From NCBI GenBank assembly GCA_965230045.1, contig OZ245940.1, forward strand, positions 1,999,403 to 2,063,402: a stretch of DNA of 64,000 bases, in the 5' to 3' direction. The notes under the pieces are model-generated. The model ran no database searches. It was not told the DNA's origin and saw only the letters and a program-made list of their open reading frames with translations. A program made the translations under genes and the position numbers. The DNA comes from Bacteroidales bacterium (GTDB taxonomy: Bacteria; Bacteroidota; Bacteroidia; Bacteroidales; WRLA01). Positions 141 to 17,523 of this stretch are shown piece after piece (the stretch's first letter is position 1; each line of letters begins with the position of its first letter).

Positions 141-627
141 ATTTCACTATTGTTCGAGCATCATATCAGGAAGTTGCTAAAACAAAGGTTTATGCTTTTC
201 CCAAAAAAAATTCTGTATCCCAAACGGCATATATGAAAACAATATTTATCCTGACGTCGTTATTGATTATGGCAATGATTGTATTGGAGTCTATGATGTG
301 AAGTATAAAAAGTTTGATTTTTTAAATGGCGTTAATCGTGAAGACAGATTTCAGTTAATAACTTATGCTGCCTCATATCTTAGAAAATACAAAATTATTG
401 ACAGTGGAATCATATACCCTATTGGTGAATCAAATTGTGATAAAATCAATGCTATAAAACCTCAGTATCTTTGGGTTGGTAATATTAAGATTCCTTTTAA
501 GGTCAGGTTTTATAAAATCAAGCAAGATATTGCTTGGCAAAGGATAGTTGGTAATAATTTTTTGGATAAATTCTTTTGCAATTTGAAAGAAATTACTTCT
601 TCTACGGAAGAGAAATTGATTAATTGA
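141..627 (+). pseudogene. McrC-like / PD-(D/E)XK restriction-endonuclease C-terminal remnant, 5'-truncated by the MITEs and frameshifted
   Basis: Frame 1 reads ...NIYPDVVIDYGNDCIGVYDVKYKKFDF...REDRFQLITYA, a D...D-x-K core followed by a Q-x-x-x-Y motif as in McrC-type nucleases. Upstream, frame 3 reads LFEHHIRKLLKQRFMLFPKK up to an A8 run (203..210). No N-terminal half is present. Confidence 0.4.
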
Positions 628-639
628 AAAACACCATCT

Positions 640-1548
640 ATGTCCCAACAAGGCACCATAAAACGATATACGCTCATTATTGAGAAGATCAATAACGGAC
701 AGTTTCCTGGTTTTGAAGAGATCAGGAGCTTCCTTTTTGAACAGGGTTTTGAAGTCAGTAAGCGAACCGTGCAGCGCGATATTGAGCAAATACGCACGGA
801 GTTTGGGCTGGAGATTGTATATGAGCGCCATAGGAACGGTTACTTTATCGACTTTGAGGAAAGCTACAATACAGATGCCTTTTTTCGCTTTCTGGAAATT
901 GTAAATACGGCTGAAATGCTCAAAACAAGCCTCTCGGAGAGCAAAGAAAGCCTGCGCTATATTTCTTTTGATGATGGTGGAGGATTGCGGGGCGTTTCTC
1001 AACTGGGACCTTTGCTCAAAGCTGTACGCGAGAAATGCTATATTTCATTTCGGCATCAAAGCTATTTCAGGGATAAAGCCAGGCGATACACCATAAAACC
1101 CTATTTGCTGAGGGAGTATCTGAACCGCTGGTATGTTATTGGGCTGATCGGGCCAATGAAAGAATTCCGGACTTTTGGCATCGACCGGATCACCGAACTG
1201 GAAGTGAAAGCAAAATCTTTTGAGCCTCATGCCGAGCTGGATGCGCGGGAAGCTTTCCGGAATATTATTGGCTTGGTTTATTCAATGAGCGCTGTGCAAT
1301 CTGTTATCCTTTCTTTCACCCCGGAGCAGGGAAAATACATTAAGAGCCTGCCTTTGCATCACAGCCAGGAGGTTTTGATTGACGATGAAAAAGAATGCCG
1401 CATCAAGCTGAGAGTCATTCCAAATTTAGAACTCAAACAGCAAATCCTGATGCAGGGAGATCGCGTAAAGGTGATTGAGCCTCAGTGGCTGGTGGAGGAA
1501 ATCAAGGAAATTTTATTAAAAAGCCTGGAACGATATTCCTCAGAATAA
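640..1548 (+). CDS. WYL-domain transcriptional regulator (N-terminal wHTH + WYL + C-terminal extension)
   Basis: HTH segment SKRTVQRDIEQIRTEFG. WYL-type segment RYTIKPYLLREYLNRWYVIGL...FRTFGIDRI. C-terminal KVIEPQWLVEEIKE. Starts 12 nt after the upstream ORF stop. Confidence 0.85.
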   Translation: MSQQGTIKRYTLIIEKINNGQFPGFEEIRSFLFEQGFEVSKRTVQRDIEQIRTEFGLEIVYERHRNGYFIDFEESYNTDAFFRFLEIVNTAEMLKTSLSESKESLRYISFDDGGGLRGVSQLGPLLKAVREKCYISFRHQSYFRDKARRYTIKPYLLREYLNRWYVIGLIGPMKEFRTFGIDRITELEVKAKSFEPHAELDAREAFRNIIGLVYSMSAVQSVILSFTPEQGKYIKSLPLHHSQEVLIDDEKECRIKLRVIPNLELKQQILMQGDRVKVIEPQWLVEEIKEILLKSLERYSSE

Positions 1549-1566: not shown

Positions 1567-1602
1567 TACGCCATAGTTTGGCGTAGTACAGGGATAATTT
1601 TG
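1567..1602 (+). promoter_or_regulatory. Putative promoter/operator of the ATPase-protease operon: inverted repeat TACGCCA-N5-TGGCGTA (1567..1585) and a Bacteroidota-type -7 box TAATTTTG (1595..1602)
   Basis: The palindrome was read directly. TAATTTTG fits TAnnTTTG and lies 18 nt upstream of the ATG at 1620. Confidence 0.35.
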
Positions 1603-1619
1603 TCATCGATAAAAATAAT

Positions 1620-3665
1620 ATGATGGCAAAAGAAAACAATCAATCAAAACACATTCAACAGAAATACAAAGTCCTTGAGAATGCAAGGCAAACCCTCAAA
1701 AAAGAATTCATTGGCATAGATGGGATTATTGATGAAATCATTGAAAATGTAAGTGCCTGGTATTTGATGCCGCAACTTTTGGAGCGTCCGGTTGTGATCA
1801 ACCTTTGGGGTCTGACCGGAGTAGGAAAAACATCGGTGGTCAACCGTTTGGCCGAACTGCTCGATTATAAGAGTTTATACTACCGCTTCGATTTAGGCGA
1901 AAAAGAAAAGGGATATTCATTTGGGAGTACAGTGGATGAAATTAAAGAAAATGAAGAAGAAGAACCCATAATTTTCGCTCTGGATGAAATTCAGCAATGT
2001 CGGACAAAAATAGCTTCACGTCCTACTTTTCAGGACAAAAACCGGATGGTTTGGGATTTACTGGATAACGGCAAAATACAGTTTGTTGAATACTCACACG
2101 AACTTTGGCGAATTAAAAACCTGACATGGCGGCTCTACCAATTCATATTATTGGGCATCAAAGTAAAAGACGGCATTGTTTGTAGTCATAAGCAACAATA
2201 TCGGGATGAATTTGATGTGGATGATGATGAAGCGATTCTGCGTTTTATTCCGGAAAAGTATTATACATACATTATCAATCTGGCAGGCGATAAATTAAAT
2301 TTAAGCCTAAAGCAGGATCTTGAGAAAATCCTTTTGTCTGGAACCGCTGAAGAAAATATACAATTCCTTAAAAAAGTCATTAAAATAGGAAACGGGCCAA
2401 AAGTGGCGAATTTTTCAAAAGCTCTGATTTTTGTTTTGGGTAACCTGGATGAGGCATATAGCATGAGCGGCAATTACAGCTCTGATATGGATGCAGATGT
2501 TTTCCACCGTCTGTCAATCAAATTAAACGTTCCCAGAATCAAAAGTACCCTGGGCAAAATGTTTCGGGACGAACAGGTTGCCCGCCTTGGCAATATCCAT
2601 ATTATCTATCCGGCACTGAGCCGGAATTCCTATGAGCTGATTATTAAAAAAGAGCTTCATCAGCTTGCTCTTCAATTAAACAAACACTTTAATGTTCTGA
2701 TCGAATTTAGCGACAGTATTCATCAACTCATCTATGAAGAAGGTGTTTACCCCAGCCAGGGTGTTCGTCCGGTTTTTACCACCATTCATCAGATATTAAA
2801 AAGTACATGCAGTAACTTTTATGCGCAGATTTTAGCAAAAAATATAGATGCCGACAAACTTTTGTTTGAGCGTGCCGGCAACAAAATAAGGTGTATCTGC
2901 AAAAAGCTGAATCAAAGTGTATTTATACTGGAGTCAACCATAAAAACTTCCCTGGGCGATTTGCGCAAAAACAGAATGGACGATTTACAAGCAATTACTG
3001 CTGTTCACGAAAGTGGCCACGCTGTTTTATCCATTTCTTTGCTGGGAACAATTCCTGAAGCTGTTTATTCGGTCAGCTCCGATGCGGACAAGCATGGTTT
3101 TGTTTATTTCGAAGATGAATGGCCATTTATACCTCGCAAAGAAATCACGGCACGGGCAGCCGTATTGCTTGGAGGTTTTGTTGCTGAAAAGCTGATTTTT
3201 GGTCAGGAAAACCAAACCAATGGTTCCGAATCGGATATAAGCAAAGCAACTCAACTATTGCAATTTGCTTTTGCTAACTCAGGATTTGGAAAGCATCCCA
3301 TTCAATATGGTTTGCCGGTTTACGAGACGAAGGAAACCTACCATAATTATCAGGAAATGGAGGCTCAGGTCAAGGAGAGCCTGCAGAAATCTCTTCAACT
3401 GGCAGAACAGTGCCTCCAAAAGGAGTTTGCCCTCTTGCTAAAAATGTCTGATTACTTAAGTAAAAACAGCGTTCTTTCAAAAGCAAAAATCAAAGAATTA
3501 ACTGAAAAATACCTACAGGGATCAGGCGCTGAAAATGATAAATGGAACAGCTCTTTTTATCGGGATCAACTAAAAAACAAAATCCGGGAGTACGGAGACG
3601 AAGAACCTAACAATAAAGCAGTAGGTAATTCATTGATACTCAATAGCGATAAGAATACAGCCTAA
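1620..3665 (+). CDS. Soluble P-loop AAA+-type ATPase fused to an FtsH-type (M41) zinc metalloprotease domain; no TM segment
   Basis: Walker A LWGLTGVGKTS (K70, nt 1827..1829). Walker B PIIFALDEIQ. Lid-like MFRDEQVARLGNIHIIYPAL. Protease half: ITAVHESGHAV (HESGH at nt 3006..3020), AAVLLGGFVAEKLIFG, GSESDISKATQLL. These parallel FtsH HEAGHA / LLGGRAAEE / ASNDIxxAT. Confidence 0.85.
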   Translation: MMAKENNQSKHIQQKYKVLENARQTLKKEFIGIDGIIDEIIENVSAWYLMPQLLERPVVINLWGLTGVGKTSVVNRLAELLDYKSLYYRFDLGEKEKGYSFGSTVDEIKENEEEEPIIFALDEIQQCRTKIASRPTFQDKNRMVWDLLDNGKIQFVEYSHELWRIKNLTWRLYQFILLGIKVKDGIVCSHKQQYRDEFDVDDDEAILRFIPEKYYTYIINLAGDKLNLSLKQDLEKILLSGTAEENIQFLKKVIKIGNGPKVANFSKALIFVLGNLDEAYSMSGNYSSDMDADVFHRLSIKLNVPRIKSTLGKMFRDEQVARLGNIHIIYPALSRNSYELIIKKELHQLALQLNKHFNVLIEFSDSIHQLIYEEGVYPSQGVRPVFTTIHQILKSTCSNFYAQILAKNIDADKLLFERAGNKIRCICKKLNQSVFILESTIKTSLGDLRKNRMDDLQAITAVHESGHAVLSISLLGTIPEAVYSVSSDADKHGFVYFEDEWPFIPRKEITARAAVLLGGFVAEKLIFGQENQTNGSESDISKATQLLQFAFANSGFGKHPIQYGLPVYETKETYHNYQEMEAQVKESLQKSLQLAEQCLQKEFALLLKMSDYLSKNSVLSKAKIKELTEKYLQGSGAENDKWNSSFYRDQLKNKIREYGDEEPNNKAVGNSLILNSDKNTA

Positions 3666-3669
3666 AAAT

Positions 3670-4665
3670 ATGCAAGCCAAACTAATACCTTTGAAGAAAG
3701 TTTTTGAGAAGCATAATCTTTACAGGCTTTTTGATATTGACTTCGATAAGGCAGAGACGGTAGTGTGGCTATACAGACATGAACAACGTCTTTTCTGTCT
3801 CTTTAAATCCAAGGGCAAGTACCTGCTTCTTCATACCGATGGTTACCATTTTTGGTGTCGGGATACTGTCTATTGGGAGTATTACATTTATGATTCCTTG
3901 CATGAATCCTTCCGGAACATCAATCAGTTGTTTTACGATAGCATACCTTATTATGGTGTATGTAATCAAAGTAGAAGACAACTGGAGTATTGGATGAATA
4001 TAATCCCGGTTTGGGCAATATTGAGACCCAGATATTTATCAGTAATAGCCAGGGCGTATATACATGATCGTTTATCAAGCTTACAGGATACACCTAATTC
4101 AAATGAAGTGGCCTGGTTTGTGGATTCTGTGTATAAAATTTTCTGGAAAGAGTATTTTTTCAAAAAAAGCAGTAGCCAAATTGCTTCAATTCAGCCAATA
4201 TTACAGGATTTGGTCATAAAATGTATCGCTAAGAAAAAGTATCATGAAATTTACAAAAAAATTTGCAATGTAAAGACCGGATCATTTGTAATTGACTCTT
4301 TTACTTTGATTTATGATGATTGCAGTCAGATAGAATTTGAGATGGAAAGACAAAGATACAAGGAGATGATCAAGATATCGCCGGGAGATTACTCAGATTT
4401 TCTGATCAAAGAGGAGCAAATTCGGTCTAGTGACCAATTTTTGAATGAGCTTGAATGTAGCAATGGTGTAAAATTTACAAGTATAAAATTAAGGATTGAA
4501 TACGATTTGTACATTGATGGTTCGATGGAATTTGAGTACGATCAATACACGAATAAACTTGGTGAAAGATTTCGAGCCATTTATTATCAGATTGTTAAAG
4601 AGAAAATAATTGATGAAGATAGTATAGAAAACATGCCCATTTATAAGTTATTGAAGGGGACGTAG
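3670..4665 (+). CDS. Hypothetical 331-aa protein, operonic partner of the ATPase-protease
   Basis: A long ORF starting 4 nt after the upstream stop. Visibly rich in W/Y/F. No signal peptide, TM segment or catalytic motif recognised. Confidence 0.7.
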   Translation: MQAKLIPLKKVFEKHNLYRLFDIDFDKAETVVWLYRHEQRLFCLFKSKGKYLLLHTDGYHFWCRDTVYWEYYIYDSLHESFRNINQLFYDSIPYYGVCNQSRRQLEYWMNIIPVWAILRPRYLSVIARAYIHDRLSSLQDTPNSNEVAWFVDSVYKIFWKEYFFKKSSSQIASIQPILQDLVIKCIAKKKYHEIYKKICNVKTGSFVIDSFTLIYDDCSQIEFEMERQRYKEMIKISPGDYSDFLIKEEQIRSSDQFLNELECSNGVKFTSIKLRIEYDLYIDGSMEFEYDQYTNKLGERFRAIYYQIVKEKIIDEDSIENMPIYKLLKGT

Positions 4666-4704: not shown

Positions 4705-6097
4705 GGGAGTATTCAGAAAAGTGTGTCAGCTGCTTGCCCTGCAACGCCCTGGAGCCTTGGCGGAAGGGCGTTGCAGGGCAAATATAAGCAATTATAAATA
4801 GCGGGCATAACGGTCTCCAAATTTTTCGATGAGTTCTCTCTGTATGGACCCCCAATTGAAGGCCTTGCGCTTCCAGCTTTTTTTGTTGTGCATCAATGCT
4901 AGATACAGCTGTTTTATCAGTCCTTTGTCGTTGCTCCAGGCTCCTTTGGACTTGGTTATCTTGCGCATAATACGATGCACTGCCTCAACTGGATTGGTGG
5001 TGTAGATCATCCGCCTGATATGATGCCCATAGTCCATAAACGCCATCAGTTCCTCCCAGTTTTCCTCCCATTTTGGACGGATGTTTTTGTATTTGCCGTC
5101 CCATTTCTGTCCAAATGATATTAAAGCTGTTTCGGCTTGTTGCCTGTTTGCTGCTGTATAGATCTTACGCAGATCAGAGCAAAGAGCCTTCCTGTCTTTG
5201 TCGCTTACAAAGCGGGTAGATGTGCGTACCATATGCACTATGCAGCGCTGTACAATGGCTTTGGGATAAACCTGGCCTATAACCCCGGAAAAGCCTTTAA
5301 GCCCATCTACACAAAAAAACAAAACTTCCTCTACGCCACGTTCCTTAAGGTCTTCCAGGATCATGCCCCACTGGTTGGCCCCTTCTGATTCGTTTATGTA
5401 AAGCCCAAGGATATCGCGTTGGCCTTCAGCGTCTATGCCATAACATGTATAGATGGCTTTGCTGATAATATGACCCGCTTCGCGGACTTTAAAGTGAACA
5501 GCATCAAGGTATATGACACTGTAGCACGGAAATAGCAACCGCTGCTGCCATTGGGTAATTTCAGGCCATACACGGTCGGTTACCGAACTGATTACTCCGG
5601 CGCTTATTTCAAGCCCATATAGGTGCTGCAACTGGTAGCGCACATCCTCAACTGATTGACCGCGGGCGTATAGGCTTAGGATTATTTCATCTACCCCGTT
5701 CCCAAGGTCCCTGTCCCACTTTTTAACCAAAATCGGCTCATGGTCGCCTTGGCGGTCACGCGGCGTGCGTACCTGCAGCGCTCCGGCAGCACTGCGTACT
5801 TTTTTCTCCGTATAGCCATTGCGCCGGTTGCCGCTGTCAACCTTTTGGCTTAAACTATGATTTATCTCGCCCTCTAAGGCTGCATTTACCATAGTTTGAA
5901 GCATCTCGCTGAAAACACTGCCTTCTCCAAATAAGGATTCTCCACTGTATAAGCGACTTAGTACTCTTTCTCGTAAATGCGCATCTGGTATCAACTCTTC
6001 CATGCGCGGGGATTTCTTGTTTTTCTTTCTTGTCATGTGTCAAATGTATTAATTCAGTTCTAATTCCCAAACATGACACACTTTTTTGAACAGCCTC
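4705..6097 (-). mobile_element. Intact IS256-family insertion sequence (1393 bp) with an 8-bp target-site duplication AGCCCTGT
   Basis: Direct repeats AGCCCTGT at 4697..4704 and 6098..6105. Imperfect terminal inverted repeats gggagtattcagaaaagtgtgtca / gaggctgttcaaaaaagtgtgtca (19 of 24 positions match). Confidence 0.9.
4792..6036 (-). CDS. IS256-family (mutator-type) transposase
   Basis: Typical IS256 segments: YLDAVHFKVRE...AIYTCYGIDAEGQRDILGLY, FFCVDGLKGF, VQRCIVHMVR, YTTNPVEAVHR. Confidence 0.95.
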   Translation of the reverse strand: MTRKKNKKSPRMEELIPDAHLRERVLSRLYSGESLFGEGSVFSEMLQTMVNAALEGEINHSLSQKVDSGNRRNGYTEKKVRSAAGALQVRTPRDRQGDHEPILVKKWDRDLGNGVDEIILSLYARGQSVEDVRYQLQHLYGLEISAGVISSVTDRVWPEITQWQQRLLFPCYSVIYLDAVHFKVREAGHIISKAIYTCYGIDAEGQRDILGLYINESEGANQWGMILEDLKERGVEEVLFFCVDGLKGFSGVIGQVYPKAIVQRCIVHMVRTSTRFVSDKDRKALCSDLRKIYTAANRQQAETALISFGQKWDGKYKNIRPKWEENWEELMAFMDYGHHIRRMIYTTNPVEAVHRIMRKITKSKGAWSNDKGLIKQLYLALMHNKKSWKRKAFNWGSIQRELIEKFGDRYARYL

Positions 6098-7307: not shown

Positions 7308-8270
7308 TCAGAGTTCATCCTGTAGTTTGCTGATTTCTTCCAGGCTTAAGCCGGTGATTTCCCGGATAATATCAATTTCCATATCTTTAAGGAACAGATT
7401 CCTTGCTAAGGATAATTTTTCTTCTTTTCTGCCTTCTTCCCTGCCTTCTTCCCTGCCTTCTTTTCTACCTCTAATAATTCCTTTCTTCTCTCCCTCAATC
7501 AGCCCTTCTTGTTTGCCTTCTTCCCTGCCTTTAATTAGCCCCTTTTCTTCTGCCCAGTCAATGGAGTTTTTGATATCGCGATAGGCATTTAGGCTGAACT
7601 GATATTCTTTGTACTCCTTTGAATCCAAACGGGCAATTTCTGCCGTTTCAAAGAATTTAAGGAAAACCTGTTCCCTCAGTTTTTCAGGCACGCGGTCCAA
7701 GCGGTTTAGGTTTTTGATCACATAAAGCCATTTTTCAAATTTGCTTTCCAGCTCCGATAGCTCCTTGCTGAATTTGGGCATAGCGAGATAAATGTAAGTG
7801 AGCTTGTCGTAGAAAATATCCTTGCTGTCCAAATCACAGATCTTCGCATCGAAACGGTATTTGTCCTCCGGGCTCTCGTCGCCCTTAAACACGAAATCCA
7901 AAATACCAATGGTATAAACGTGCTTGAGCTCAAAATTCCAGTCTTTGCCTTTGTCTTTTGCCTGCTCCTGAATCGGGAAAGTAGAATAAAAAACAGTGCG
8001 ATCCTTGAAATACTTCTGTTCTGCCTTTTGCATTTCCACAATGAAACGCTCGCCCTTTTCGTTTTTGCAGTAAATATCAAAAATAGCCCTGCGGTCGCCC
8101 AAGGCAATCGGCAGGTTTTCGTTGGGCAAATACGACAGCTCCACAATGTTGCCTTCCTGCTCGCGCAACAGCTCGTTCAGGAAATCCTGCAATAAATCCT
8201 TGCTGGGCTCCTCGCCAAACAATCGTTTAAAACCGTAATCCGTAAAAGGATTGATGTATTTTTCTTTCAT
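7308..8270 (-). CDS. Rpn-family recombination-promoting nuclease / PD-(D/E)XK putative transposase
   Basis: N-terminus MKEKYINPFTDYGFKRLFGEE...LLQDFLNELL with IFDIYC...FIVEMQ core. C-terminal E/G/K-rich repeat and LSLEEISKL tail. Confidence 0.85.
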   Translation of the reverse strand: MKEKYINPFTDYGFKRLFGEEPSKDLLQDFLNELLREQEGNIVELSYLPNENLPIALGDRRAIFDIYCKNEKGERFIVEMQKAEQKYFKDRTVFYSTFPIQEQAKDKGKDWNFELKHVYTIGILDFVFKGDESPEDKYRFDAKICDLDSKDIFYDKLTYIYLAMPKFSKELSELESKFEKWLYVIKNLNRLDRVPEKLREQVFLKFFETAEIARLDSKEYKEYQFSLNAYRDIKNSIDWAEEKGLIKGREEGKQEGLIEGEKKGIIRGRKEGREEGREEGRKEEKLSLARNLFLKDMEIDIIREITGLSLEEISKLQDEL

Positions 8271-12438: not shown

Positions 12439-13797
12439 TTAATCGTGGCGCAATGAGGTTACCGGATCCTGTTCCGATGCCCTTTTTGCGGGCATATAGC
12501 CAAACAATATTCCTACACCGGCCGATACGCCAAACGAAATCACAATGCTTACCACACTGATGATGGTCAGGATACCGGTTATTTTCATAATGAGTTTGGC
12601 GAAAATAACACCGAGCAAAATACCGATGATACCCCCAGCCAGGCTGATGAGTGTAGATTCCATCAGGAACTGCATCACGATATCCCGCTTACGGGCGCCA
12701 ATAGCAAGCCGCACTCCAATTTCGCGGATACGTTCCATCACGGATGCCAGCATAATATTCATAATCCCAATGCCGCCCACAATCAGCGAAATACTGGCAA
12801 TGGCGCCAAGCACGATATTGAAAATATCTTTGGTGCGTTGTTCTTGCTTAAGCAGAAGCTCGGGAATAGTGATTTCAAAATCCTGTGCCCCGGAATGCCT
12901 GCGCAGGATCATCCGGCTCAAAACTTCCGCAGTAGGACTGAGGTAGCGGCTGTCCGTTACCTGCACGGTAATTTTATCGAGCTGGTTGCGGTTGCTCTCT
13001 TCGGTAGAAGATGAACTTCGCCTTCGTCCCCTGCGGGATATTGATTCGCTGGTGATCCTGGCCCGGTCATTATATCTGCTCAATACACTTGTCAGGGGCG
13101 CAAATACATCATTTTGACTCAAATCCATACCGAGCTCGCTGAGCTTGCCCGATGTGTTCAAATCTTTGATGATTCCGCACACTGTAAACCAGATGTCTCC
13201 GCATTTGATGCTTTTCCCAATTGGGTCTTCCTTTTGAAAAAGGCGTGCGCTGAGTTTCTGGCCAATCACACAGACGGGTTTGTCTGATTTCATATGCTGT
13301 TCATCAAAGAAATGCCCTTTGATCAGTTCATGGCCAAAAACGTCAAAATAATTTGGGGTAACTCCTTTTAATGTGGCTTTGCTTTTGTTTCCTGCTCGGA
13401 TAACGGTAGTGTTATAACTTACTTCGGGGCAAACATTTAGTGCTGTGGGCACATTCTGTTCAATAGCAATTGCTTCTTCCATGCTGAGGCCACGGGAAAG
13501 TTTGCCCATATTTTTTCCCTGGTCTTCATTGCCTGAATCGGAATCGGAATCAGAGTCGGAATCGGAATTTTCATCATCGCTCCTGGCGTTATCTGTTTTA
13601 GCCGAGATAATGATGTTGTTGACACCCACAAGTTTCATTTGGTCGAGGATTTCCTTTTGTGCCCCTTTGCCGATGGATAACATGGCAATAACGGCAGCAA
13701 CGCCAAAAATAATGCCCAAAGTAGTGAGCAGACTGCGGGTTTTATTGGCGATTACGGCCTCAAGAGCAATCAGGAGGATTTGTATGAAGCGTTCCAT
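12439..13797 (-). CDS. MacB-type ABC transporter permease (MacB periplasmic domain + FtsX) with an SD-rich insertion
   Basis: N-terminus ANKTRSLLTTLGIIFGVAAVIAM. C-terminus FtsX-like EIGVRLAIGARKRDI...PAKRASEQDPVTSLR. Insert is SDDENSDSDSDSDSDSGNEDQ. Confidence 0.9.
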   Translation of the reverse strand: MERFIQILLIALEAVIANKTRSLLTTLGIIFGVAAVIAMLSIGKGAQKEILDQMKLVGVNNIIISAKTDNARSDDENSDSDSDSDSDSGNEDQGKNMGKLSRGLSMEEAIAIEQNVPTALNVCPEVSYNTTVIRAGNKSKATLKGVTPNYFDVFGHELIKGHFFDEQHMKSDKPVCVIGQKLSARLFQKEDPIGKSIKCGDIWFTVCGIIKDLNTSGKLSELGMDLSQNDVFAPLTSVLSRYNDRARITSESISRRGRRRSSSSTEESNRNQLDKITVQVTDSRYLSPTAEVLSRMILRRHSGAQDFEITIPELLLKQEQRTKDIFNIVLGAIASISLIVGGIGIMNIMLASVMERIREIGVRLAIGARKRDIVMQFLMESTLISLAGGIIGILLGVIFAKLIMKITGILTIISVVSIVISFGVSAGVGILFGYMPAKRASEQDPVTSLRHD

Positions 13798-13809
13798 ATT
13801 GTCCTCCTT

Positions 13810-15054
13810 TTATTGTTTTTTGTTCAGCAATCGTAGTTTGAAATCTTCAGGATCCTGCGGCATCGAAAGATATACGGTTTGGCCTTCTTCCAGTCCTTCC
13901 TCAATGACAATTGCATCGGAGTTGCTGGCCCCTGTTATGACTTCCTGCTTATTGCTTTTTGTGAAAACGTACGTCATGGAATCATTGCTGTGCACGCATT
14001 CCAGCGGCAGGAAAAGGACATCATCCAAAATATCGGTGATAATGGTGACCTGGGTAGTCATTGCGGGTTTCAGGATGGAATCAGATTCGTTCAGGTCGAT
14101 GATAACTTCATAAACCTTTGCGGTTGAATTGCGCAATTGCTCGCCGATATTGGCAACGGAAACAACATTTCCTGTATAGCTTTTTTCGGGGAAGGCATCA
14201 ATGCCAATGGTTGCCTCCTGCTTTTCACTCAGCTTGCTGATATCTATTTCGTTAACATAGGTTTTGGTAATCATCATGCTCAGGTCGGGCAATTTGGCTA
14301 CGATGGGGTCCCAGGGGCTAACCGATGAGCCGGTTTCAATTTTTCCGCGCCAGCCTTTGTGGTAAATCACCATTCCGGGCTGGGGTGCCATAATGGTGAA
14401 ATTGGCCATGGCACGCATGTATTTTTCCACTTTGAGTTTTTGTGAGTTCAGGTCGGCCTGTACTTCACGCACCTCTGCTTTGGCTTTGGTGATTTGCAAA
14501 TCATAATTGTTTTTCATTTGCCTGAAAGCCCGTTGCGATTTTTCCAGGGCAATTTGCGCCTGCCTTTGGGTTGCCGGTGGTTCGTAAATAGACTGTTCCA
14601 CTTCAATTTTCTTTTCTTCCAATTCAAATTCCTGATTGATGAGGTTGTTGCGCAATTCACGCATCCGCAGCGAAGTGTCGATCATCTTTTGTTCCAGCTG
14701 GCTTTCAAGTTTCGTAATTTCATTGTCCAGCTCTTTCATCCGGTTGGCAATGGGTGTTTTGTCGAGTTGGGCAACAAATTCCCCTGAATCTACTACCGTA
14801 CCTTCTGCAATGAGTTTATCAATTTTAATATCATCATAGAATCCGAGGCTTCGGAGGATATTGGATTCAAAACGGATATCGGTAGAATTTTTGGCTTCCA
14901 GTTCTCCGGTTGTACGCACATCAATAACGAATTCGCCTTTTTTAACATTGGTGAAAATGTCTTCTTTCTGGCTGCCGTCTGAACCGCCAATAAGAAAGGC
15001 CAGGATTAGGATTACAGCAACAGATGCCAGGATGATCCAGTTTCTTTTATTCAT
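13810..15054 (-). CDS. Efflux periplasmic adaptor (HlyD/MacA-type membrane fusion protein)
   Basis: N-terminal anchor, long coiled-coil segment, beta-barrel C-terminus. Operonic with the permease. Confidence 0.85.
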   Translation of the reverse strand: MNKRNWIILASVAVILILAFLIGGSDGSQKEDIFTNVKKGEFVIDVRTTGELEAKNSTDIRFESNILRSLGFYDDIKIDKLIAEGTVVDSGEFVAQLDKTPIANRMKELDNEITKLESQLEQKMIDTSLRMRELRNNLINQEFELEEKKIEVEQSIYEPPATQRQAQIALEKSQRAFRQMKNNYDLQITKAKAEVREVQADLNSQKLKVEKYMRAMANFTIMAPQPGMVIYHKGWRGKIETGSSVSPWDPIVAKLPDLSMMITKTYVNEIDISKLSEKQEATIGIDAFPEKSYTGNVVSVANIGEQLRNSTAKVYEVIIDLNESDSILKPAMTTQVTIITDILDDVLFLPLECVHSNDSMTYVFTKSNKQEVITGASNSDAIVIEEGLEEGQTVYLSMPQDPEDFKLRLLNKKQ

Positions 15055-16179: not shown

Positions 16180-17037
16180 TTAGTCATTATTTTTATCTGA
16201 TTTCGACATCACTTTACGTGGACGTTTTTTGCGCTTGGGCTGGTCATCGTCGTCATCTTCCTCAGCAACTGCTGCTTTCTTTTCTTCTGCTTCCTCCTGT
16301 TCGGCAGCTAGCTCGGCAGCCTGGTCTGCAGCACGCTTTTCACGTTCCACTTTGCGTTCGTCAAGACCTTCCTGAATTGCCTGAACCATAATTTTGATGA
16401 TAATGGCAATGGATTTGCTGGCATCGTCATTGGCAGGAATTGGGAAATCAATGAGTTGCGGGTTAGAATTGGTATCAACAATAGCGAAAGTAGGAATATT
16501 GAGTTTCTTTGCTTCATGAACAGCAATGTGTTCTTTGCTGATATCAACGATAAAAATAGCAGCCGGCAAACGGTTTAGGTCGGCAATACTACCAAAGTTT
16601 TTTTCCAGTTTCTGGCGTTCGCGCTGAATTTGCAGGCGCTCGCGCTTGGAAAGGTTATTGTAGTTGTCTGTCTCAACCAGTTTGTCGATGGAGGTCATTT
16701 TCTTAACAGCTTTGCGGATTGTTGCAAAGTTGGTAAGCATACCGCCGGGCCAACGCTCAGTAGCGTAAGGCATATCCACTTTTTTAACTTCCTGGGCTAC
16801 GATGTCTTTTGCTTGTTTTTTTGTTGCAACAAACAAAACTTTTTTACCTGATTTGGCTACCTGCTTCAGTGCAGCTGCAGCTTCTTCTATTTTTGCTGCG
16901 GTTTTGTAGAGGTCAATGATGTGGATACCATTGCGTTCCATAAAAATATATGGCGCCATGTTGGGGTTCCACTTACGTTTAAGGTGGCCAAAGTGTACAC
17001 CTGCTTCCAGTAATTCTTCGAAATTTGCTCTTGCCAT
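16180..17037 (-). CDS. rpsB: 30S ribosomal protein S2 with a charged C-terminal extension
   Basis: LLEAGVHFGHLKRKWNPNM...IVDTN motifs. The tail is rich in E/A/D/K. Confidence 0.97.
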   Translation of the reverse strand: MARANFEELLEAGVHFGHLKRKWNPNMAPYIFMERNGIHIIDLYKTAAKIEEAAAALKQVAKSGKKVLFVATKKQAKDIVAQEVKKVDMPYATERWPGGMLTNFATIRKAVKKMTSIDKLVETDNYNNLSKRERLQIQRERQKLEKNFGSIADLNRLPAAIFIVDISKEHIAVHEAKKLNIPTFAIVDTNSNPQLIDFPIPANDDASKSIAIIIKIMVQAIQEGLDERKVEREKRAADQAAELAAEQEEAEEKKAAVAEEDDDDDQPKRKKRPRKVMSKSDKNND

Positions 17038-17136
17038 GTTTACTTTCTTTAATTAGCAACGACCAAGTAGTCTCCTAAAGGAAAGTCTTAACCGTTTAGA
17101 TGCTAAACATAATTGAATAAAAAGTGAATAATTTGA

Positions 17137-17523
17137 TTAACGCTTGCTGAACTGGAATTTCTTCCTTGCTTTTGGTTGACCAGGCTTTTTGCGTTCTACC
17201 ATACGTGGGTCACGACGCATCAAACCATTTGCTTTCAGTACAGGGCGATATTCAGGGTCGATTTCGCAAAGTGCGCGGGAAATTGCAAGACGAAGAGCTT
17301 CGGCCTGACCTGTGATTCCGCCACCATCGAGGTTGACTTTAATATCGTATTTGCCTGTAGTTTCAGTCAAAACAAAAGGTTGTTCAACAACTTTGTGCAG
17401 TGTAGGCACACTGAAATATTCTTTGTAATCTTTCTTATTAATGGTAATCTTGCCTTCGCCCTCGGACATATAAATACGGGCTACAGCAGTTTTACGTCTG
17501 CCTAATGTATTAATGTACTCCAT
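17137..17523 (-). CDS. rpsI: 30S ribosomal protein S9
   Basis: GRRKTAVARI...GGGITGQAEA...PRMVERKKPGQPKARKKFQFSKR. Confidence 0.97.
   Translation of the reverse strand: MEYINTLGRRKTAVARIYMSEGEGKITINKKDYKEYFSVPTLHKVVEQPFVLTETTGKYDIKVNLDGGGITGQAEALRLAISRALCEIDPEYRPVLKANGLMRRDPRMVERKKPGQPKARKKFQFSKR

Follow-up and report, generated by a model that had tools for sequence, protein, structure and literature searches.

The established self-compartmentalizing ATP-dependent proteases include FtsH, Lon, ClpXP/ClpAP, HslUV, and the proteasome. In the M41 family of MEROPS (FtsH, Yme1, and AFG3L2), a peptidase with an HExxH motif and an aspartate ligand lies in one chain behind an AAA+ ATPase of the classic type with the second region of homology, and the chain of FtsH includes two N-terminal transmembrane (TM) helices that flank an extracytoplasmic (periplasmic) domain. 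In contrast, the GxRP sensor-2 arginine and a D2-small lid mark the HslU/ClpX/Lon/RuvB group of AAA+ proteins and not the classic AAA proteins. Here we describe a gene from a 64,000-nucleotide (nt) stretch of a Bacteroidales genome (GenBank assembly GCA_965230045.1; contig OZ245940.1, positions 1,999,403 to 2,063,402 of the forward strand; hereafter, the window) whose product of 681 amino acids (aa) shares with the FtsH family the M41 peptidase placed in a single chain behind an AAA+ ATPase but has neither the TM helices nor the periplasmic domain and carries, instead of a classic AAA module, one of the Clp D2 type with the sensor-2 arginine and the D2-small lid. AAA+ proteases as such are well known; what sets this family apart is the pairing of a Clp-type motor with an M41 peptidase, and the available parts of the literature, among them PMC10924106, PMC9122601, and PMC13552941, yielded no description of such a fusion or of an AAA+ protease controlled by a regulator with a WYL domain, which is the kind of gene found next to this one.

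A Pfam scan of the protein recognized a Peptidase_M41 domain (PF01434; aa 457 to 627; E = 7 × 10−15), above the gathering score, and a ClpB_D2-small domain (PF10431; aa 333 to 399; E = 5 × 10−6; 26.8 bits versus a cutoff of 21.9). The region from aa 60 to 131 drew at most weak generic P-loop/AAA matches, including one to the classic AAA domain over aa 62 to 131 (PF00004; E = 0.0019) that falls below the gathering score. Residue conservation was evaluated across 31 bacterial homologues, and the catalytic residues of both the ATPase and the peptidase are invariant or nearly so in these. The helices of aa 1 to 55 are the counterparts of the pre-Walker-A helices of Clp D2 modules (LxxxLxxxViGqdxai) and include neither a separate substrate recognition N-domain nor a TM helix. 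The two strings on which the first-pass annotation of this DNA had based its comparison with Clp/Hsp100 proteins, LIFVLGNLDEAY (aa 269 to 280) and MFRDEQVARLGNIHIIYPALSRNSYELIIKKEL (aa 314 to 346), are both present in the translation; the first is the sensor-1 strand, and the beginning of the second, MFRDEQVARLGN, aligns with the F-x-PEF-x-NR-x-D stretch of Clp D2 modules. The lid domain contains a three-stranded sheet at aa 413 to 440 in the secondary structure assigned to the models by DSSP. In the peptidase half, HESGH (aa 463 to 467) corresponds to HEAGH of FtsH, and SESDI, which contains D539, corresponds to the ASNDI motif that holds the third zinc ligand; thus, the zinc-binding and catalytic landmarks of FtsH that had been noted in this half are indeed kept and are invariant. 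The C-terminal tail has motifs of its own, FYRxxLK (Y647, R648, L651, and K652) and SLN (L674 and N675), and could be a docking or autoregulatory element. An alternative ATG at position 1623 may be the true start of the gene, since the protein of a 95% identical relative has 680 aa.

The identity of the ATPase was addressed with searches using aa 1 to 445. A profile of this region run against all PDB chains recovered only D2 modules of Clp/Hsp100 proteins, namely, those of ClpE (E = 6 × 10−12), Hsp104 (E = 2 × 10−10), ClpC, ClpB, and Skd3, apart from Lon at an E value of about 0.5; classic AAA proteins, FtsH included, were absent at E values of ≤1. The alignments span the pre-Walker-A helices, Walker A, and the block comprising sensor 1, the Arg finger, and sensor 2. 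When an AlphaFold2 model of the same region (predicted local distance difference test [pLDDT] score, 76; predicted TM-score, 0.61) was used as the query in Foldseek, all 50 of the matches listed were ClpC, ClpB-NBD2, ClpA, or Skd3 (E = 1 × 10−7 to 3 × 10−6), with no classic AAA protein among those 50. The NCBIfam models point in the same direction: those of ClpA, ClpB, and ClpV match aa 251 to 413, and those of FtsH are confined to aa 438 to 632, TIGR01241 (FtsH) scoring 43.7 bits versus a cutoff of 600; in phmmer searches of PDB, the FtsH, Yme1, and AFG3L2 chains likewise align solely at aa ~438 to 646. Together, these results support the assignment of the motor to the Clp/Hsp100 D2-type AAA+ modules of the HslU/ClpX/Lon/RuvB group. 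The profile, fold, and motif evidence therefore bears out the architecture that the first-pass annotation had proposed, namely, a chimera of a Clp-type, non-FtsH ATPase and an FtsH-type M41 peptidase, in which the stretch after Walker B is the sensor-1, Arg-finger, and sensor-2 (GxRP) region of a Clp D2 module, as aligned to ClpE and Hsp104.

An ordinary divergent FtsH paralogue that functions in membrane quality control, with its N terminus miscalled or truncated, would fit the name "cell division protease FtsH" that several databases give to the homologues and the first rank of FtsH in a Foldseek search with the full-length AlphaFold model (pLDDT, 73). The latter rank arises from the M41 domain and generic AAA similarity, and we reject this explanation on the combined evidence of the NCBIfam score, hydropathy, the PDB profile search, the Foldseek search with aa 1 to 445, and the uniform starts of the family members. 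The FtsH similarity is restricted to the peptidase half, and the N-terminal half matches only Clp/Hsp100 proteins. The Kyte-Doolittle hydropathy (19-residue mean) has a maximum of just 1.48, and this lies within the M41 domain; hence, the protein has no membrane segment, in accord with its earlier description as cytosolic and devoid of the FtsH TM helices. About 930 clusters of homologues share a length of ~680 aa and a start at the ATPase N terminus. An upstream exon supplying an FtsH-like N terminus was sought and not found: a separate gene for the WYL regulator ends at position 1548 and is followed by a 71-nt spacer with the promoter and the putative operator described below. Profile and structure searches likewise gave no placement of the N-terminal half in the FtsH/Yme1 clade.

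The family defined by this protein is large. More than 2,000 homologues were recovered, the best of which have ~680 aa and are 45 to 52% identical; their sources, so far as the few source names tell, are Bacteroidales, Flavobacterium (for example, Flavobacterium sp. TSSA_36), Mangrovibacterium (for example, Mangrovibacterium lignilyticum), Chitinophagaceae, and many metagenomes, and they are labeled "hypothetical," "AAA family ATPase," or, wrongly, "cell division protease FtsH." An exhaustive hidden Markov model search with the N-terminal profile gave 930 clusters (50% identity) at E values of ≤10−30. Almost all of the best 150 of these 930 representatives have 650 to 720 aa, and nearly all match from residue 1 to 30; the architecture of the family is therefore uniform, without an N-terminal extension. 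The sole match in a single-protein search of genome contigs was the 95% relative, from a metagenome-assembled genome of Bacteroidales. Relatives with 27 to 35% identity over nearly the full length are present at 32 loci of IMG/VR, mostly on phage-like contigs of 100 to 550 kb, and these keep the AAA, D2-small, and M41 architecture with intact catalytic motifs; one lies amid genes for a helicase, a clamp loader, and a MazG-like protein, another lies within a phage-like gene array, and two further phage-like loci also have relatives. None of the relatives at the 32 IMG/VR loci has a WYL neighbor. GenBank phages and PLSDB plasmids had no full-length homologue, just matches to the FtsH peptidase half, and BFVD had nothing beyond genuine FtsH proteins of giant viruses and fragments. 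Likewise, no whole-protein family in PADLOC, NCBIfam, or PHROGs captures the protease. The fusion family, of which we found no published description, is common both among Bacteroidota and among very large phages.

The gene directly upstream of the protease gene encodes a transcription regulator with helix-turn-helix (HTH), WYL, and WCX domains (Pfam WYL, PF13280, E = 2 × 10−12; WCX, PF25583, E = 1.5 × 10−11; HTH_11, E = 4 × 10−5; PADLOC WYL model, E = 2 × 10−30), the closest solved relatives of which in PDB include WYL domain proteins, PafBC, and a DeoR family regulator. Our survey of gene neighborhoods covered 82 loci (80 metagenomic and 2 genomic; median length, 8.6 kb), and a homologue of this regulator, 31 to 64% identical to that of the window, is present in 53 of them; no other gene is strongly linked to the protease gene. 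It is located either upstream on the same strand, with a gap of 75 nt to 5.4 kb, or divergently, with a gap of about 170 to 650 nt. The pairwise identities of regulator and protease covary (Mantel r = 0.57), a value that none of 2,000 permutations reached. In the accessible parts of the relevant reports, WYL regulators are described as sensors of single-stranded DNA (ssDNA) (PMC11662680 and PMC12041258), and the class acts in the control of defense and of DNA damage responses (PMC11662680, PMC12041258, PMC9122601, and PMC9122588).

Both a palindrome, the putative target sequence of the WYL regulator (TACGCCATAGTTTGGCGTA), and a match to TAnnTTTG, the −7 promoter consensus of Bacteroidota (Bacteroides), lie in the 71-nt spacer before the protease gene, and the palindrome overlaps the −33 TTTG element. 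Taken by itself, the window says little about this site: it contains a single copy, and at least one match occurred in 41 of 100 shuffled versions, so that the weight of the palindrome comes entirely from its positional conservation across loci. Of the 66 nonidentical loci for which 120 nt or more of upstream sequence was available, 40 carry the 15-bp pattern CGNCA-N5-TGNCG in the 120 nt that precede the protease gene, versus a background of 0.005 per 120 nt elsewhere in the surveyed loci. Thirty-eight of these 40 palindromes sit 47 to 62 nt from the protease start codon, 27 are followed by a TAnnTTTG box, mostly at a spacing of 11 nt, and the TTTG element is usually embedded in the palindrome. 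The site remains with the protease gene when a cassette of GmrSD, GmrSD_N, and RNase_T genes separates this gene from WYL, and a second copy is then found at the head of the cassette. Divergent intergenic regions have two copies, and the site also occurs before some other neighboring genes and precedes the WYL gene itself in 10 of 42 cases. We consider the palindrome to be most likely the operator of the adjacent WYL regulator, as a candidate site, and it would define a candidate small WYL regulon. A scan for sigma-70 promoters was uninformative (16 sites versus 13.5 expected), which is unsurprising for Bacteroidota.

The protease gene and, where present, the WYL gene form the constant part of these loci, and a variable set of genes is found between the two or just 3′ of the protease gene. 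This set includes the GmrSD, GmrSD_N, and RNase_T-like cassette, PDDEXK_4 nucleases, DUF2779 proteins, a UVR motif protein, a RecA/KaiC-like ATPase, leucine-rich-repeat and tetratricopeptide repeat proteins, and UmuD. At least one nuclease-type neighbor is present in 38 of the 82 loci, and the PADLOC matches of the neighbors comprise PDC-S26 (PDDEXK_4; E = 1.6 × 10−120), PDC-S48/DEDDh, and HEC-06/Orf5/SspE-like models. The three-gene cassette, with its own copy of the palindrome, lies between the WYL and protease genes at seven loci and consists of GmrSD (555 to 657 aa), a GmrSD_N-only protein (740 to 797 aa), and an RNase_T/DEDDh exonuclease (161 to 167 aa), the last of which matches the N-terminal part of the PADLOC candidate PDC-S48. 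One of these loci has a resolvase and an integrase along with GmrSD.

Given this arrangement, the enzyme could be a regulatory or timer protease that turns over the WYL regulator or the coregulated nucleases and so limits self-damage, rather than a killing effector. ClpXP offers a precedent, since in Escherichia coli it breaks down HsdR when restriction is alleviated following DNA damage. The constancy of the protease next to varying nucleases (GmrSD, PDDEXK_4, RNase_T-like, and DUF2779), the operator common to the protease gene and the inserted cassettes, and a regulator class that, in the parts of the reports available, senses ssDNA or DNA damage (PMC11662680 and PMC12041258) would all suit such a role. 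Many loci, including that of the window, nevertheless have the WYL and protease genes without a conserved nuclease partner, and neither WYL nor those nucleases accompany the phage relatives; on balance, we regard this role as unlikely, although it is the foremost of the alternatives.

Other neighbors bear on a role in the response to DNA damage. UmuD (Peptidase_S24; 149 aa) is encoded directly 3′ of the protease gene at three loci, at one of which a 419-aa open reading frame (ORF) comes next. A DUF2779 protein (~500 to 650 aa, with a weak Cas4-like match) is encoded in the same orientation as WYL at three loci, one of them shared with UmuD, and the WYL protein of the DUF2779-bearing clade is about 35% identical to that of the window. 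The UmuD and DUF2779 neighbors hint at a DNA damage link. The protease might accordingly belong to the DNA damage response of Bacteroidota, in a LexA-independent WYL regulon, where it would, for example, clear stalled or cross-linked proteins from DNA and have no antiphage function. Such a role would also accommodate the UVR motif protein found at three loci, a weak uracil-DNA glycosylase-like match, the RecA/KaiC-like ATPase, one locus at which the protease gene stands among ordinary chromosomal genes, and the PafBC and DriD WYL regulators, which run DNA damage regulons according to the accessible parts of the reports on them. It is at odds with the commonest neighbors, which are restriction-type or PADLOC candidate defense nucleases, with the integrases, resolvases, insertion sequence (IS) elements, and restriction-modification genes at the loci, and with the patchy, noncore distribution of the gene, and we judge it to be somewhat less probable still than the timer role.

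The immediate surroundings of the protease gene in the window are an IS-rich, fast-changing island (Table 1). The locus of the 95% relative comprises, in this order, McrB, a 232-aa ORF that has no Pfam match, WYL, protease, IS elements, and a type I restriction-modification specificity gene, with ISL3, IS66, and IS21 elements in the region equivalent to that of the transposases of the window. The ORF at positions 298 to 627 (+), upstream of the WYL gene, has a weak McrBC family match (E = 0.043) and is preceded by in-frame stops (region 1 to 627); the 95% relative has at this position the intact 232-aa ORF, after the McrB-like AAA_5 gene, and the copy in the window may be truncated or decayed. 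The 331-aa ORF downstream had no Pfam, PADLOC, NCBIfam, or PDB match, and its sole homologue among 5.8 × 10^9 sequences is a copy in the 95% relative that is split by ISL3 (13330 to 14058 and about 16923 to 17183 of that locus). We rejected it as a partner in the system, as it is a lineage-specific ORFan absent from all other loci.

Table 1. Coordinates of the protease gene, its parts, and the flanking features in the window
Feature	Positions (nt)	Strand	Residues (aa)	Basis and remarks
HTH-WYL-WCX transcription regulator	640..1548	+	302 in total	Pfam, PADLOC; conserved partner of the protease gene
Palindrome TACGCCA-tagtt-TGGCGTA	1567..1585	.		Core CGCCATAGTTTGGCG at 1569..1583; putative WYL operator
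−7 box match TAATTTTG (TAnnTTTG)	1595..1602	+		Starts 11 nt past the palindrome
AAA+/M41 fusion protease gene	1620..3665	+	681 in total	Translated ORF; predicted soluble
N-terminal helices	1620..1784	+	1-55	Alignment to ClpE D2 residues 428-518, hydropathy, DSSP of models
Walker A, GLTGVGKTS	1809..1835	+	64-72	G64, G67, G69, K70, and T71 invariant; kept in phage relatives
Positional equivalent of pore loop 1, DLGEKEKGYSF	1890..1922	+	91-101	Alignments; between strand 2 and helix 2
Walker B, IFALDE	1971..1988	+	118-123	D122 invariant, E123 nearly so; DE kept in phage relatives
Family-specific helical insert	2088..2393	+	~157-258	Models; pre-sensor-1 hairpin position
Sensor-1 strand	2424..2459	+	269-280	N275 invariant
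Arg-finger region	2559..2594	+	314-325	R316, E318, Q319, and R322 invariant; alignments to ClpE and Hsp104
Clp D2-type small (lid) domain	2616..2948	+	333-443	Pfam ClpB_D2-small, DSSP of models
Sensor 2, GVRP	2760-2771	+	381-384	G381, R383, and P384 invariant; inside the lid domain
Peptidase M41 domain	2988..3500	+	457-627	Pfam, alignments, conservation
HESGH	3006-3020	+	463-467	H463, E464, and H467 invariant
Third zinc ligand	3234-3236	+	D539	Invariant; SESDI aligned to ASNDI of E. coli FtsH
C-terminal tail	3501..3662	+	628-681	Low model confidence; motifs conserved in the bacterial clade
ORFan	3670..4665	+	331 in total	Starts 4 nt past the protease stop codon; local cargo gene
Mutator family (IS256-type) transposase	4792..6036	−		Just 3′ of the module
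PDDEXK_2 nuclease family transposase	7308..8270	−		Low-complexity E/G/R/K-rich C terminus; just 3′ of the module

Taking these lines of evidence together, we think it probable that the protein is a cytosolic, single-chain ATP-dependent metalloprotease that is WYL gated and inducible and that operates in a defense or DNA damage setting. By analogy to Lon and FtsH, it would assemble into a ring, most probably of six subunits, whose ATPase tier passes polypeptide on to a chamber formed by the M41 domains; the Clp-type motor would unfold or feed the substrates, and the insert in this motor would probably select substrates or partners. The WYL regulator would most likely bind the CGNCA-N5-TGNCG site overlapping the −33 element in the promoter of the protease gene, and with the same operator preceding variable nuclease genes, the protease would be the one invariable component of a small local regulon. 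As the WYL class senses ssDNA, the protease would be produced from the WYL-controlled promoter when phage replication or DNA damage generates ssDNA and could serve as the proteolytic arm of a defense or stress island. Large phages carry the same machine without the WYL regulator. More tentatively, the family may represent a further class of self-compartmentalizing ATP-dependent proteases, in the form of an ssDNA-triggered, WYL-gated arm with exchangeable nuclease cargo whose machine huge phages would have taken up for their own use.

Several observations weigh against this interpretation. On the regulatory side, the assignment of the palindrome to the WYL regulator comes from their co-occurrence, at least 10 loci with sufficient upstream DNA have no WYL gene within 8 kb, the UmuD, UVR motif, and RecA/KaiC-like neighbors fit DNA damage as well, some loci, such as the one mentioned above, sit among ordinary chromosomal genes, and the available parts of the literature offered no experiment or paper linking the family to defense. 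On the structural side, PF07724 (AAA_2) was not reported by Pfam at E values of ≤1, confidence in the full-length and aa 1 to 445 models is moderate (pLDDT, 73 to 76), and the Foldseek TM-scores of the latter are low (0.2 to 0.4) owing to the insert and the domain orientations. The segment from strand 2 (RFD) to Walker B is ~13 aa shorter than that in Clp D2 modules, and the GYVG pore loop is absent at aa 91 to 101, with no canonical aromatic-hydrophobic-Gly motif in its place; the bacterial clade conserves D91, G93, K95, S100, and F101 of this loop, which is variable in the phage relatives. Because the loop is short and differs between the bacterial and the phage proteins, it is uncertain that the motor translocates processively, and given the missing GYVG loop and the low TM-scores, the terms unfoldase and self-contained degradation machine, which the first-pass annotation had offered, stay predictive.

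The same features raise the possibility that the ATPase is a nucleotide-dependent switch or remodeler and not a translocating motor, with the M41 domain cutting specific accessible targets in a site-specific or activating manner. Besides the varying loop without a conserved aromatic residue, such a switch could draw on the large insert, which is located where other members of the AAA+ group bind partners, as exemplified by hairpin 1 of RuvB. The insert (~100 aa) is mostly helical, lies between the strands at aa 152 to 156 and 260 to 264, and has pLDDT scores of 80 to 91 in both the full-length and the aa 1 to 445 models; its profile found no relative in PDB or Pfam, and it is likeliest to be a substrate- or partner-binding element. 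However, all of the ATPase motifs (Walker A, Walker B, sensor 1, Arg finger, and sensor 2) are invariant or nearly so, as expected of a hydrolyzing ring ATPase, and the M41 peptidases known to date (FtsH, Yme1, and AFG3L2) act solely as chambers to which an AAA ring delivers the substrate. We therefore hold a nontranslocating switch to be improbable and favor the ring-forming, ATP-driven protease.

The textbook architectures of AAA+ proteases amount to a handful, and a widespread, undescribed pairing of motor and peptidase would extend that list. The family would also be a natural test case for the coupling of a Clp-type ring to an FtsH-type chamber with neither a membrane anchor nor a canonical pore loop. 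In Bacteroidota, in which the regulation of stress and antiphage responses is poorly mapped, the conserved WYL gene, operator, and promoter make up a directly testable regulatory circuit, and the exchangeable nuclease genes in one regulon suggest a modular logic of such islands. That very large phages encode relatives points to a possible role on both sides of the arms race between hosts and viruses. At a practical level, the existing labels ("FtsH" and "hypothetical") are misleading, and the annotation could be corrected.

Among described systems, BREX with BrxR and BrxU, CBASS with CapW, PafBC, and DriD likewise have an HTH-WYL-WCX regulator beside presumed targets, as described in the accessible parts of the reports on them (PMC9122601 and PMC9122588). 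The present loci resemble these WYL-regulated modules in the palindromic site at the promoter and in the GmrSD-type nucleases of the cluster and differ from them in that the constant regulated gene encodes an AAA+ metalloprotease, an arrangement not reported in the parts of the literature found. IetAS resembles the fusion in pairing an AAA ATPase with a protease in antiphage defense, but IetA is an FtsH-type AAA protein and its protease partner is a separate subtilase. The ClpB-like ATPase DolB of the Dodola system is matched by way of its PADLOC model only in the P-loop region (aa 6 to 91; E = 6 × 10−7), the protease has no full-length match among the PADLOC models, and DolA (DUF6414) was not found among the neighbors scanned; the Pfam content of dolB and ietA was taken from the part of PMC10924106 available to us. 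The Clp/Hsp100 D2 modules (ClpA, ClpB, ClpC, ClpE, Hsp104, and Skd3) are the best sequence and fold matches of aa 1 to 445 and share with them the N-terminal helices, Walker A and B, sensor 1 (xxGN), the FRxEF-type Arg-finger stretch, GxRP, and the D2-small domain. Unlike the Clp/Hsp100 proteins, the present protein has a single ATPase ring module, no D1, no N-domain, no GYVG loop, and the ~100-aa insert, and its protease is fused to the motor and is a metallopeptidase; no clpP gene turned up among the annotated neighbors, without a search aimed at ClpP or its docking loop. Lon differs in its S16 Ser-Lys peptidase and Lon N-terminal domain, the present protein having a zinc-dependent M41 peptidase and no such N-terminal domain; neither Pfam nor NCBIfam gave a match to Lon_C/S16, and the NCBIfam Lon model TIGR00763 matches weakly at aa 16 to 93 (E = 7 × 10−4), the weak similarity to Lon in the NCBIfam and PDB searches spanning aa 16 to 96. 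In its organization, however, Lon (LonA/LonB) shares with the fusion the logic of a soluble, single-chain homo-oligomer driven by a motor of the HslU/ClpX/Lon/RuvB group and is, by this analogy, probably its best functional counterpart.

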